A stretch of 64,000 nucleotides of DNA from Octopus vulgaris (lineage: Eukaryota). How positions within the stretch are numbered: the first letter of the stretch is position 1; each line of letters opens with the position of its first letter. The translations under genes and the position numbers were made by a program. This document shows positions 3,921 through 59,547 of the stretch, piece after piece. The notes below the pieces were generated by a model. It was not told where the DNA came from, did no database searches, and was given only the letters and a program-made list of their open reading frames with translations. The DNA lies in the NCBI GenBank assembly GCA_951406725.2, contig OX597822.1, positions 12,462,001-12,526,000 on the forward strand. Reading direction: 5' to 3'.

Positions 3921-3970
3921 TTTGTCAGTGAACAGGTCGCGTTTCAAAGCGACGAAAATATTCTGGCAAA
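3921..3970 (+). ncRNA. Putative minimal type I hammerhead ribozyme, G3-C8 core variant
   Basis: tttgtca-GTGAACA-g-gtcgc(gtttcaaa)gcgac-GAAA-atat-TC-tggcaaa: 7-bp stem I, 5-bp stem II, palindromic stem III (AATATT). Confidence 0.65.
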
Positions 3971-5314
3971 TTAAAATTAAATGTTGAAGTGAATCTAAAG
4001 GTTTTTGTGTGGTTCTTAAATGGCTTATAAACACCTTCCATGCTGCAATTGTATATATATATATATATATATATATATATATAGATGTATGTGCTATATT
4101 TTGTTGGAATTACAGTGTTAATATAAATAATTATGGGTATATTCATGCATGTTGACTACTAAATGCGTAACATGCCGAAACGTATTGAAACCCTTCCATT
4201 ACTACGTTGCCCCAGCATGGTCACAGCTTTGAACTGAAACTGATAATATATATATATATATATATATATATATATATATATATATATATATATATATATA
4301 TATATATATATATATATATATATATATATATATATATATATATATATATCCCTAATTATTTATATTCTAATTATTTGTATTAACACTGTAATTCCAACAA
4401 AATATAGCACATACATCTATATATATTTCTGATAAGCAGGCAGTGAACTATAAATTATCTGTGTCTATTTGTATGCATGTGTACTTATAAGTATGCGCAC
4501 ATACAGTCGACTTTTTCTACACACATATATGATTTTTTTATAACATATACATATATTATATACACACCCGAATATATATAAACACATACACACACACACA
4601 TACATATATATATACAAACATGTGTATACATGCACCCCCCTCCATATATATATATATATACATAACTTGTAAATATACATTAATATATATATATATATAT
4701 ATATATATATATATACTGTCGTCAACATATAAATACACACACACATATACAGACACGCACACCATATACCCATATATATATATATATATATATATATATG
4801 TGTGTGTGTGTGTATATGTATGTATGTATGTATATATACACATACACTGTGTGTGTAGCTATTTATGATTCATGTATTTATACAAAAATGTAATAACGAA
4901 ACCACAATTCTAATTTTTAGAATGAGATATATATTTAAAAATTCCTTTCATTTGTGTTCTCCACGAAATCTTAAACTCACAAGAATCTACCAATCTTTTT
5001 TAGCTGTCATTGTTTCCACTTAGCAGTCTCTCCACTTTGCGCTTTCTCTTTTCCCTCTTTCACACTCAACATTTTGTCATTCAGCATTTCTGCGATTCGA
5101 TGACTTTTTATTTCCTTTCTAATAACAAAACCTGCAGAATTCTAGATTTGAGTCGTTCATGTTTATTGATGGAAATGACAGCATATACTGTACGTTGTCA
5201 TAAATTGTGCATCAAACGGAAAAAGTGAAAAAGTGATAGTCTGCGAACAATTCATAATCTTCAATATTATTAAGATGTGTCTACACACACACGCGGAGAG
5301 AGTGAGAGGGATAA

Positions 5315-5730
5315 TTAGATAGATAAATAGATAGATAGATAAATAGATAGATAAATAGATAGATAGATCGATAGATATATAGATAGATAGATAGATAGAT
5401 AGATAGATAGATAGATAGATAGATAGATGGATGAATAGATAGATAGATAGATAGATAGATAGATAGATAGATAGATAGATAGATAGATCGATAGATAGAT
5501 AGATAGATAGATAGATAGATAGATAGATAGATAGATAGATCGATAGATAGATAGATAAATATATATATATATATATATATATATATAGAGAGAGAGAGAG
5601 AGAGAGAGAGAGATAGATAGATAGATAGATAGATAGATAGATAGATAGATAGATAGATAGATAGATAGATAGATAGATAGACAGATAGATTGATAGATAG
5701 ATGGATAGATCGATAGATCGATAGATAGAT
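5315..5730. repeat. (GATA)n/(TA)n/(GA)n compound microsatellite
   Basis: Directly visible. Confidence 0.97.
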
Positions 5731-5738
5731 AGGAAAAA

Positions 5739-6309
5739 TATTGAGTTGTCCAGAAAATTCGTGACGATTTTTAAAGGAAAGAAAAAGGTCAATAAATACT
5801 TGCCATTACCCAAGCTTTACCAGGAGATCATGAACGACGGATTTTGATAGGTTGAGTCTTTCTGGTAATTCTCAGGTTGTGCATTATGGGTCATTCTCAA
5901 TTAATGACTTGATTTGGTCTTCATCTCTAGTGGATGGTCTGCCTGATCGCTCTTTATCAATAAGGCTATAATCTCCAGCTCTGAACCTTGCGAACCACTT
6001 CCGTGCAGTTCTATCGGATAAAGTAACATCACCGTAAACTGCGCACATTTCTTTGGTTGCTCGTGAGGCATTTTTCCCTTTACGGAAACAGAAAAAGAAT
6101 CAAGTGCCGAAAATGAACTTTATTATCTTCCATTTTAAAGGGTTACAGAATTAACACAGGTTATAGGAACATACACCTTGTTCCACGAAAAGGTAGCTTA
6201 AACTGTAGAGGTGTAAGTCAAATCCTATTTTATGGACAGAACCATGTTCTAAATTAAGTCGAAATGTAAACTACTATAAATCAGCACAAACTTTCCGGAC
6301 AACCCAATA
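5739..6309 (-). mobile_element. Internally deleted mariner transposon with both TIRs
   Basis: ~30-bp imperfect TIRs (tattgagttgtccagaaa / tttccggacaacccaata) with TA ends. Minus strand encodes a decayed N-terminus: MEDNKVHFRH...RKWFARFRAGDYSLIDKERSGRP...; the catalytic domain is missing. Confidence 0.92.
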
Positions 6310-6624
6310 GATGAAAAAGGCAAAAACAATTATATGAACTTCATTAGCTGATAGTTGTTCCCGCTATTAGACGAGGTGGACTTCATGAGGGGAAAAACCA
6401 TGTGTGATACTGCTATGAATATATAAAGTGTTACGCAATCACTCAACTGTTAGTCCGTCGCATATTCAAATGGAAACAGCTGTAAGATAATAGAGTTGGT
6501 CTGATGATCGTTTATGAGCTTTCATCTGCATTTTTTTTATTACCGCTTTATACCCGATGAACGCTTCAGTTAGAAACCTACGCATGTTGAGTTCTACATC
6601 AAGTTCGTAGTATCGCAATGCGTA

Positions 6625-6851
6625 AATCGTTAGCACGCCGGGCGAAATGCGTAGCCGTATTTCGTCTGGCGTTACGTTCTGAGTTCAAATTCCGCCTAGG
6701 TCGACTTTGCCTTTCATCCTCTCGGGGTCGATAAATAAAGTACCAGTTACGCACTGGGGTCGATGTAATCGACTTGATCCGTTTGTCTGTCCTTGTTTAT
6801 CTGTCCTTGTTTGTCCCCTCTGTGTTTGGCCCCTTGTGGGTAGTAAAGAAT
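6625..6851 (+). mobile_element. tRNA-derived SINE family C (Meta-domain-like), 5' truncated
   Basis: B box gagttcaaattcc and central gcctttcatcct.tcggggtcgataaa.taagtaccag. Homologous to 25903-26131. Confidence 0.85.
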
Positions 6852-6889
6852 AATATATGTATATATATATATATATATATACACATGTA

Positions 6890-56892: not shown

Positions 56893-57409
56893 TGTATGTA
56901 TGTATGTATGTATGTATGTATGTATGTATGTATGTATATATGTATGTATGTATATGTATGTATGCATGTATGCATGTATATATGTATGTATGTATGTATG
57001 TATGTATGTATGTATGTATATATGTATGAATGCATGTATGAATGCATGTATGTATGTATGCATGTATGCATGTATGTATGTATGTATGAATGTATGTATG
57101 TATGTATGTATGAATGCATGTATGCATGTATGTATGTATGTATGTATGTATGCATGTATGAATGTATGAATGTATGTATGCATGTATGTATGTATGTATG
57201 TATGCATGTATGCATGTATATATGCATGTATGAATGAATGTATGTATGTATATATCTATGTACGTATATATGTATGTATGTATGTATGCATGTATGAATG
57301 CATGTATGCATGTATGTACGTATGTATGTATGTATGTATGTATGCATGCATGCATGTATGTATGTATGTATGTATGTATGTATGTATGTATGTATGTATG
57401 TATGTATGA
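56893..57409. repeat. Degenerate (TATG)n array with CATG/AATG variants
   Basis: Directly visible. Confidence 0.97.
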
Positions 57410-57589
57410 ATGAGTGCTTGTTTTATATATACATATTTATGCTTATTTGTGTATGTAAGTGATGCGTGTGTACGTGTGTATATCTATATTTATAACTATA
57501 TCTATCTATCTATCTATCTATCTATCTATATATATATATATTTAGGGAGAGAGAGAGAGAGAGAGAGAGAGAGAGAAGGAGAGAGACGC

Positions 57590-57870
57590 AGGTTTCAGTT
57601 CAACCAATCAACGGAACAACTCACTTGTTAAATTTACGTGCAGTGGTGAAGCAGTCCACAAACACGCGCACCCCTAACTGTTCTCAGAGGGATTCAGCGT
57701 GACACAGAATATGAACCGGCCCCTATTGAATTACGTGTATAACTAATCTTCGCCAGCTGAGTGGACTGGAGCAACGCAAAATATAGTGTCACAAAACGCC
57801 GCCGGGAATAGAACACACCGTCGAACGAGCGTGACCCGTTGACAGTAAACACTAAGCCACGGGTCTTAAA
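57590..57870 (-). mobile_element. SINE related to family B (shared 3' part, different CORE-like middle)
   Basis: Shares caacggaaca...gattcagcgtgacacag with family B; the middle is cagctgagtggactggagcaacg. Confidence 0.65.
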
Positions 57871-58429
57871 CGAAACAGAAAGCCACTCAGCAAACTTAAC
57901 AGGGTTGTATATGTTATTTTAAAGCCTTTGCCTCGGCTCCCTGCGACTTTGTGATGCAGCTTCTAATAGAAACCTAGCTGGTTCAAGCTTAGCTTATCGA
58001 ATTCGGGAAGCTAAGCGTGAATGGACTCGGCTTTTGTTACAAACTTGAGAAAAGGTAAATCACATGACTCAGCAAAGATACCCTTCTCCAGGTTTCTTGG
58101 AACTGATATTATCAAGTTCATTCCAAGTATTCCAATTTCTTAACATTAGACACACAGACACTCACAGTCAATGGCACAGATATACATATACATATATACA
58201 TACACACATATGCATATATATATACACAGACTCACACACACAGACACACACACACACACACACACACACACACACACACATATATATATATATATATATA
58301 TATATATATATATCGTTTTGGGATTTGGTTCGCACCAAATTTTTGTGCCTTATAATTTAACACACTCACCGGTAAAATTTCCACGTATTTCTTATTTTTA
58401 TTTTCCTTAAATTTGCGTTGCATCTTGCT

Positions 58430-59040
58430 ACAGGTTGAGTAGTTGGTAGTATGGATGTGATTTCATTCTACCCAACCATAGACATAGATTTTGACGTGCA
58501 GAAATGTATTCAGGTAATCTGTGAAAGTGGGGTGGAGTTCCGTAAGATCAACACGTGGGAACTGAGCTTCCTCCTCAGGCTAAGCTATGACAGTAGCTAT
58601 TTAGATGACCATGACCTCAGTAGATTCTGCCCCACCAGGTCCAGAGAGGAAGACCAACCACCATCACTTCAGCATTGAAGAAAAGCACCACAGAGCGCTG
58701 GAGTGGCCAGAATGCACCTACCCAAAATCCTGAGAACAACAACCAGGTGAAAGAAATGATTGCACATGTAATAGGGGCCAGCGTAAAAACCACCTCTAGT
58801 AAAGTTTAACAAAAAAAACTATACATGCAGTTTCAAGGTGCAGCCATCGGTGTCGGTATAGCTAGAGATGTGGCTGGCCTCTTCATGACCTGGTGGGACA
58901 GAAGACTTAAACAAATCTTAGCAGAACAGTCCACAAGTCTTCTACTCTACACTAGATATGTAGATGACATTAATATAATAGTTAGAACCAACTCTAGTGA
59001 CGGTAATGTAGAGACTGAGACATGCACACACAGGGGGACA
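58430..59040 (+). mobile_element. Penelope-like RT fragment between inverted terminal repeats
   Basis: GSMDVISFYPTID, QFQGAAIG, YTRYVDD; flanked by 58312-58430 and an inverted copy at 59058-59125. Confidence 0.8.
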
Positions 59041-59499
59041 GAGGTATACACATATCTGTTAAATTATAAGGCACAAATAAAAATGACTCTCCCCAGACAC
59101 AACAGAATATGCTTCGACACACGAAGTATTAGGAGTTCAATAAAAACCATGCTTGTTCGGTAGTATATATATACACAGGAGATATATTTAAGCGTTTACA
59201 AAGAATTTGAGAGGAACCAACCAGTTTTCCTAGCATTTTTTGCTATGAAAACAGGTTGGCTCCTCTCAAATTCTTTGTAAACTCTTATATACAATTCCTT
59301 CTGTGTATATATACATTACTACCAAACAAGCATGATTTTTATTCAACTCCCAATACTTTTTGTTCAATATTTTCTTGAATACTTTCATGTAAACTGTTTT
59401 TGACATTTTCTTATTATTATCAAAGTATGTATATCTGTATTTTAATACTTTTATTACAACCAGTACTTAACACAACAAAGCTTATACAAAGATTTACTT

Positions 59500-59547
59500 T
59501 TTACTATTGACAATCTTTTTCTAAAAAAGTGAAACCGGTCAAGTGAA
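59500..59547 (+). ncRNA. Third copy of the U3-A8 hammerhead
   Basis: TTGACAA-tctttttctaaaaaagt-GAAACCGGTC-aagtgaa; one stem I mismatch. Confidence 0.55.

Follow-up and report, generated by a model that had tools for sequence, protein, structure and literature searches.

How freely can a natural hammerhead ribozyme exchange the base pair between positions 3 and 8 of its catalytic core? The question arises from a 64,000-nucleotide stretch of the Octopus vulgaris genome (assembly GCA_951406725.2, contig OX597822.1, positions 12,462,001 to 12,526,000 of the forward strand; hereafter the window, within which all coordinates are counted), in which a sequence-only reading had pointed to hammerhead-shaped motifs from many unrelated repeat families. 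We conclude, with a probability of about 0.6, that these motifs are minimal type I hammerheads of the pseudo-long terminal repeats (pseudo-LTRs) of Penelope-like elements (PLEs), mostly present as decayed copies, that their 3-8 pair is exchangeable, and that one very high-copy family carries G3-C8 together with U17. What is new is an Octopus repeat of very high copy in which the prevailing core is G3-C8, accompanied by U17; minimal hammerheads of PLEs, their decayed copies and U3-A8 had been reported before.

A family with a G3-C8 core

The motif that carries the finding lies at 3921..3970 (+), has the shape of a minimal type I hammerhead and obtained the top score in both relaxed scans described below. 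It comprises the core GUGAACA (3928-3934), an extra G (3935), a 5-bp stem II (3936-3940/3949-3953) with G10.1-C11.1, GAAA (3954-3957), the palindrome AAUAUU (3957-3962), position 17 (3963) and a 7-bp stem I. Both the extra nucleotide between 9 and 10.1 and G10.1-C11.1 are traits of minimal hammerhead ribozymes (min-HHRs), and two transversions fall exactly on the paired positions 3 and 8, the remaining nine letters of the core, G10.1-C11.1 and stem I being unaffected. The motif sits within a truncated PLE-type insertion (3763..4051, +) with (TA)n flanks, made up of a tail and inverted 3' arm (3763-3899) followed by the motif and 3' end (3906-4051); the inverted repeat spans 3825-4051, with the inversion joint at 3899/3967 and opposite-strand joints at 3823/4050. 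Stem I is family sequence on both of its strands and takes nothing from the inverted arm.

The window holds a single copy of this family. Its state elsewhere was surveyed by aligning the contigs of four DNA-type runs, from four studies and under four organism labels, to 3760-4050 at 80% likeness; one of these runs, X1, may be the source sample of the window. The alignments recovered 5,813, 6,424, 3,326 and 5,344 contigs, and in the contigs of all four runs G3-C8 is the majority state of the family, neither damage in the 3928 copy nor a decayed one-off. A G>C change at 3% or more was listed in none of the runs and the sole G>T place was 4012, which excludes a C3 or U3 subfamily at that share. 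In X1 the 3' end of the repeat is covered about nine times as deeply as the 3928 motif, as 5' truncation predicts, and loose contig ends before 3763 consist of (TA)n. Over the motif, the contig depths in X1 add up to about 10,000 times that of single-locus contigs, a figure that is not a copy number and that we read simply as very high copy.

Within 3920-3970, the listed variants place changes in loop II and at its edge (3942, 3943, 3945 and insertions at 3939-3943), while G>A at 3939, a CpG in stem II, occurs at 5-16% and breaks a pair. At 3966, G>A (67-75%) converts a U.G pair of stem I to U-A, so that stem I becomes fully Watson-Crick. Position 3963 reads C>T at 99.7-99.9% by depth; position 17 of the family is therefore U, and the C17 of the window copy is private to it.

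Folding models make position 17 of particular interest. The fold of the 3928 copy has z = -3.44, with stems I and II present in the minimum free energy structure at pair probabilities of at least 0.98, and G3 pairs with C17 at a probability of 0.98, so that stem I reaches across the cleavage site. When position 17 is A or G, the modelled pairing with G3 falls to 0, and canonical C3 pairs with G17 at 1.0. The private C17 of the 3928 copy probably inactivates it. In PMC3884650, as far as its accessible text goes, a G3-C8 variant is described as more active with G17 than with C17 ('data not shown'), and the harm that G17 does to normal hammerheads is presumed to come from its mispairing with C3. 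U17 fits the G3 core; co-adaptation is not required, because U17 is also common in the canonical min-HHRs listed in PMC4209133. This yields a testable rule, namely that position 17 should avoid the complement of position 3. A distal helix (3910-3914/3982-3986) extends stem I in the model; no conserved contact between loop I and loop II could be picked out, and min-HHRs are described, in the accessible literature, as lacking a recognisable one.

Hammerhead-like sites across the window

A strict type I descriptor is too tight for min-HHRs and gave no match in the whole window. A relaxed descriptor, which left positions 3, 7 and 8 free, admitted long loops and tolerated an extra letter or a mismatch at the stem II base, returned six: 13289- and 31172+ (C3-G8), 3928+ (G3-C8), 9044- and 9244+ (U3-A8), which are five of the nine sites of the sequence-only reading, and 59649+ (A3.G8). 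With an intact core and a score of at least 22 the window has five matches, each with a Watson-Crick pair at 3/8, whereas 502 local dinucleotide shuffles gave 0.06 per shuffle (0.01 Watson-Crick, 0.04 mismatched and 0.01 G-U), a background with which a separate set of 200 shuffles agrees. Relaxed one-mismatch matches at low scores are at chance level; 41641-, 25869+, 39508+ and 13854+ were set aside as inside or near the shuffle range, and 11649+ (intact core, C3.C8, weak stems, score 20), also in or near that range, is excluded from the count that follows.

Overall we count about 14 hammerhead-like sites from about nine families, which bears out the earlier estimate of at least 12 motifs and some nine families. 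The nine cores cited at that time are all present where they were placed, those at 9004, 13212, 44488 and 51289 lying on the minus strand, which had gone unstated. A hammerhead layout had been ascribed to all of them; it is well formed at five of the nine coordinates and defective at 59507, 51365, 44518 and 27331. The letters of the type I core (U4-G5-A6, A9, G12-A13-A14, A15.1-U16.1 and H17) are complete in 3928, 9044, 9244, 13289, 31172, 59507, 51365 and 59649 and incomplete in 44518, 28550, 22129 and 8471, and the view that U4-G5-A6 and A9 stay fixed fails on raw copies (A6 is lost in 28550, G5 in 22129). Joint change of positions 3 and 8 holds in so far as 11 of the 14 sites are Watson-Crick there, and breaks down at three sites that had not been listed. 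At the level of families, both well-formed non-canonical families do pair, and the window contains only two such families; the chance that two of two double changes are Watson-Crick is P ~0.11, and it becomes 0.012 (four of four) if the decayed 22129 and 27331 sites are counted.

The literal C3/G8 pattern CUGANGA matches neither 3928 (G3/C8) nor 9044, 9244 and 59507 (U3/A8). The proposal that such descriptors overlook variants is thus correct for some motifs, with the proviso that U3-A8 misses had been published in 2014 (PMC4209133, accessible text). Most motifs of the window are of known kinds, since U3-A8, the extra core letter, the palindromic stem III and descriptor misses have all been published for PLEs, as the accessible parts of PMC4209133 and PMC3088659 make clear. 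At gathering thresholds Rfam gave no match in the window, and its hammerhead families gave none at E<=10 around 3928, 9244 and 31172; this blank is uninformative on core variants because the canonical 31172 is missed too. Among the best 150 of 590 matches in an Rfam E-value scan of the window, microRNA models on microsatellites dominate. A metagenome pattern scan with the 3928 motif produced three matches in GC-rich contigs, lacking stems I and III and taken as chance. A generic G3-C8 pattern found at least 120 loci in viral contigs, almost all without stems, and is uninformative; a control pattern with unpaired G3/A8 likewise found at least 120. The sole plausible locus among the at least 120 (L113, 61-95; G3-C8 core, 5-bp stem II, 3-bp stem I) is indistinguishable from chance.

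The second well-formed non-canonical family is represented at 9237..9284 (+) by a minimal hammerhead-shaped motif with the U3-A8 core UUGACAA, a U10.1.U11.1 mismatch, a weak A-U stem II, the palindrome ACCGGU (self-duplex -8.3 kcal/mol), a GUC site and a 7-bp stem I. An identical motif at 9004..9051 (-) forms part of the inverted arm of the same insertion (sites 9044- and 9244+), whose arms, 8959-9058 and 9230-9329, are 97% complementary. An independent copy (59507; 59500..59547, +) is identical from core to stem III and has a broken closing pair in stem I, giving three copies in two insertions with identical core, stem II region and stem III. A natural U10.1-U11.1 mismatch like that of the 9244 family is known (PMC3088659, accessible text). 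A further site of U3-A8 type (22129; 22123..22169, +), absent from the earlier list, has G5 -> C and lies inside an inverted repeat (arms 21938-22005/22167-22234); its score of 25 compares with 0.15 shuffle matches at >=24 in the one-mismatch class. The decayed hammerhead-like site 27331 (27328..27364, +) has a UUGAAAA core and a stem I of 3 bp; its stem III is not palindromic, and its 10.1-11.1 pair is broken. Together with a copy at 58370-58460 it gives a 5-bp stem II, the core of that copy being too decayed to confirm U3-A8.

Canonical C3-G8 families are also present. The motif 13289 (13212..13294, -) has a long stem II, one G-U-type departure in its stem III palindrome and an inverted arm (13323-13432) that carries the 3' half only. 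In 31172 (31166..31210, +) a 3-bp stem II stands between C and A, and the palindrome ACUGCAGU has a self-duplex energy of -11.1 kcal/mol; its inverted arm (30856-30954) is abutted by a 99-bp inverted repeat (30639-30858, 99% complementary, 22-nt spacer). In 51365 (51289..51368, -; C3-G8 core) stem I has 2 bp and the stem II region 55 nt, and a second copy of its family (28550; 28547..28626, +), not on the earlier list, has A6 -> G. Between these two copies the motif is better conserved than its flanks (5/39 vs 64/181 differences, P = 0.004, for hand-chosen segments). In two canonical families (31179/31192 +, 51358/51304 -, 28557 +) stem II lies between a C that follows A9 and an A that precedes GAAA, both unpaired, and the two copies of the 51365 family share this arrangement; a shrimp motif likewise has an additional A in front of GAAA (PMC4209133, accessible text). 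Unusually long stem II regions of 54-55 nt with an inner hairpin occur in two canonical families (13229-13282 -, 51304-51358 -).

The remaining sites are decayed. In the minimal hammerhead 44518 (44488..44521, -; C3-G8) G12 -> C gives CAAA for GAAA. A relative of 31172 at 59643..59687 (+; nhmmer E 0.004-0.05 to 31172) has A3.G8 and is a counter-example absent from the earlier list. The hammerhead-like site 44658 (44655..44685, +; C3.C8, loop II deleted) aligns with 8471 (8434..8478, -; U3.G8, U16.1 lost); the two are relatives, each one change away from C3-G8, and the apparent 5' strand of stem I in 8471 derives from an inverted arm. Over some 25 letters around its core (44645-44670 +; same AACAGGUC) the 44658 site resembles the G3-C8 family, as a distant relative or by chance.

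The window has a G+C content of 33% and is rich in (TA)n, (TATG)n and (TAGA)n tracts. Several motifs lie within about 100 bases of the 3' end of their repeat, beside an inverted truncated copy and in or next to (TA)n; it is a trait of PLE insertions to be 5'-truncated, to carry an inverted truncated copy and a tail at one end, and to have microsatellites as targets (PMC8557442, accessible text). The attribution to minimal type I hammerheads of PLE terminal repeats, with position 3 paired with 8, is in this way supported. A broken PLE open reading frame (ORF) at 62340..63983 (+), preceded by a TA-rich tract, reaches the window end with two internal stops and contains a DKG motif, a reverse transcriptase (RT; RVT_1, E 2e-7) and a C-X4-C-X2-C linker; its closest named proteins are from Octopus vulgaris (93% identity over 52% of the query) and O. 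sinensis (95% over 48%). It is evidence for PLEs in the Octopus genome and has no link to the G3-C8 family. Nested PLE pieces occupy 58700-59360, where an RT remnant (58.8-59.0 kb) is directly followed by the 3' end of the 27331 family and then by a 235-bp inverted repeat (59124-59358); within 1 kb of them there are also a U3-A8 copy and a decayed copy of a C3-G8 family.

In self-comparisons of the window the copies are single or inverted, and the head-to-tail tandem units with a hammerhead in each by which non-LTR retrozymes are recognised were not found; Tandem Repeats Finder gave no tandem array of hammerhead units among the best 150 of its 192 rows. No convincing hammerhead core was found in the inverted repeats 18131-18438, 22707-23252, 30639-30858 and 59124-59358. 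An interspersed repeat at 2329-2980, 7439, 19228, 23727 and 37287 has TTGACAA followed by CCGAT and no hammerhead shape, and therefore gives false matches in a core-only search. Mobile-element remnants comprise 20718-21413 (-), 31678-32067 (+) and 47679-48047 (+), among them two stretches resembling the C-terminus of non-LTR retrotransposons (by eye; Pfam blank or DUF6451 below cut-off) and one Tc3-type transposase fragment (HTH_Tnp_Tc3_2, E 3e-7).

Proposed mechanism and alternative readings

These observations enable us to propose a model in which the motifs would be what remains of several PLE families of the Octopus genome, inserted into (TA)n tracts with 5' truncation and often with an inverted arm. 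PLE hammerheads probably act in tandem transcripts, where they would cut as dimers, and in vitro they are slow (PMC4209133; PMC6765202; accessible text of both). Following that literature, two copies in a partial-tandem transcript of an active source element would pair via their palindromic stem III to form a double hammerhead, which would cut after position 17 and release unit-length RNA. The 3-8 pair would be exchangeable in PLE hammerheads because the contact is Watson-Crick and position 8 contributes its 2'-OH, through which it is reported to act (PMC6155905, accessible text), with one family using the known U3-A8 and one very high-copy family G3-C8. In the latter, a C at position 17 would mispair with G3 and hold stem I closed across the cleavage site, an effect that U17 would weaken. 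Most copies in the genome would be decayed and probably inactive, among them the 3928 copy, whose C17 is private to it. That a PLE family of thousands of copies contains a working G3-C8 hammerhead with a rewired cleavage-site preference, in which C17 is avoided as a partner of G3, is a more tentative proposal, to which we give slightly less than even odds.

Several points weigh against this model. The relaxed descriptor was drawn up only once the motifs had been seen, and three of the 14 sites (59649+ A.G, 44658+ C.C and 8471- U.G) are non-Watson-Crick at 3/8, which looks like single-letter decay. No ORF attached to the G3-C8 or U3-A8 copies was seen within the window, so that the PLE origin of both families is inferred from their architecture. 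Twelve rows of the variant table lie outside those listed, and the two G>A and three C>T places among them in X1 could include 3928/3933 at low share, and the family may contain low-level G3A or C8U decay; the loose-end consensuses have the G3-C8 core in X1 and X6 and a one-letter difference at position 3 or 4 in X3 and X8, while two others show CpG decay at or near G12. With majority letters, G3.U17 still pairs at 0.67 in the model, and the self-duplex of the AAUAUU palindrome is very weak (-0.2 kcal/mol). For the U3-A8 family, the monomer fold is no better than shuffles (z -0.71), stem II is weak in the model (pair probability 0.11), and the difference between motif and flanks (1/34 vs 15/133, the 34 columns being part of the motif) is not significant (P = 0.12). 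Metazoan minimal hammerheads, moreover, cleave poorly in vitro even as dimers, according to the accessible text of PMC4209133.

The alternative that survives best is not exclusive of our model and extends it, to 3-8 covariation across many unrelated families and a large functional non-canonical population in the genome, as the sequence-only reading had suggested. Non-canonical cores occur in two of the four well-formed families, G3-C8 is very abundant through its one family, and the four Watson-Crick double changes would be unexpected by chance if the decayed sites are counted; in Schistosoma mansoni, some 1,300 U3-A8 motifs (UUGAUAA, UUGAAAA), missed by the first descriptor, accompany about 2,000 canonical ones (PMC4209133, accessible text). 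The basis is nevertheless one window, two of the four double changes lie in decayed sites, and most copies are truncated and decayed, so we consider this extension doubtful.

Somewhat less probable again is the possibility that these PLE-derived motifs are relics, with the G3-C8 family, and perhaps the U3-A8 family, no longer cleaving and having spread without any need for cleavage, the fold being retained through recency or another role such as RT or endonuclease binding. It is plausible in that Naiad PLEs without canonical hammerheads nonetheless reach very high copy numbers (PMC8557442, accessible text), in that G8C costs 10^5-fold and C3G only partly restores activity (PMC8495972, accessible text), and in that the G3-C8 family has a weak palindrome and modelled G3.U17 pairing. 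A family derived from one master also looks invariant whether its motif works or not; because this is a single family from one master lineage, the invariance of G3-C8 speaks less strongly for selection than its retention in deeply separated branches would. Nevertheless, drift poorly explains G3-C8, because the double transversion keeps the pair and comes together with U17 rather than the C that would pair with G3. The paired transversions at 3928 leave the rest of the core, G10.1-C11.1 and stem I intact, and the subfamily-level changes concentrate in loop II and flanks.

Very improbable, finally, is the suggestion that the non-canonical motifs are chance hairpins in AT-rich repeats, which owe their hammerhead appearance to a loose descriptor and to inverted-repeat arms, for although the strict descriptor and Rfam are both blank, low-score one-mismatch matches are at shuffle level and one strand in 8471 comes from an inverted arm, intact-core matches stand about 80-fold above shuffles, and at 3928, where both stem I strands are family-derived and the near-3'-end position in the repeat and all accessory features match PLE hammerheads (PMC4209133, accessible text), it is largely refuted, retaining some force for 27331 and 22129.

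Significance and comparison with known hammerheads

The exchange of C-G for U-A at 3-8 is known and the swap to G-C is expected from mutant rescue, so that our findings are a matter of specialist interest rather than astonishment. With a natural high-copy G3-C8 family, a single genome would nevertheless display three of the four Watson-Crick states. Such a family would also reveal that censuses of hammerheads overlook whole abundant families, and would offer a direct test of selection for cleavage in PLE hammerheads. If it does contain a working ribozyme, this would be the most abundant natural G3-C8 ribozyme known, unseen by CUGANGA and Rfam searches, and together with its canonical and U3-A8 neighbours it would form a natural series for catalytic base-pair exchange. 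Any earlier report of natural G3-C8 would make the octopus family a further member of a known variant.

Lunse et al. 2017 is said to deal with small PLE hammerhead variants. That paper and Przybilski & Hammann 2007, which may contain natural G3-C8, were, like most subscription papers, outside the reach of our literature search, which found engineered mutants only, both for natural G3-C8 and for octopus PLE hammerheads. The accessible portions of PMC7151607, PMC10085705 and bioRxiv 10.64898/2026.07.22.740005 contain nothing bearing on G3-C8, and a squid genome is credited with 235 Rfam hammerheads in those of PMC6962438.

The closest known systems are the min-HHRs of metazoan PLE pseudo-LTRs (Cervera & De la Pena 2014, PMC4209133), which, in the accessible text, occur as many unrelated families per genome, with an extra letter after A9, a palindromic stem III and G10.1-C11.1, mostly in single truncated copies, with opposite-strand pairs 100-700 bp apart and a U-rich 5' flank. 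The window motifs are alike in type I order, extra letter, G10.1-C11.1 and palindromic stem III, and also in their unrelated families, truncated copies, opposite-strand pairs and use of U3-A8. They differ in that the two non-canonical families have a longer stem I (7 bp), and in that the list of 56 motifs given there (53 C3-G8, two U3-A8, one U3.G8) contains no G3-C8 and no cephalopod; the window adds G3-C8. Natural covariation from C3-G8 to U3-A8, as in the window, was described by Perreault et al. 2011 (PMC3088659), whose section on core variation names no natural G3-C8. With Neptune-type and Naiad PLEs (Craig et al. 2021, PMC8557442, accessible text) the window insertions share 5' truncation, an inverted truncated copy, a tail and microsatellite targets, and the ORF at 62340-63983 shares the C-X4-C-X2-C linker, the motif-bearing families' own ORFs being unattached in the window. 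The same swapped pair is found in engineered C3G/G8C rescue mutants (PMC8495972; PMC3884650), which, as the accessible text describes them, use tertiary-stabilised extended scaffolds. Unlike those mutants, the octopus G3-C8 family, a candidate ribozyme, is natural, high-copy, built on a minimal scaffold and equipped with U17.

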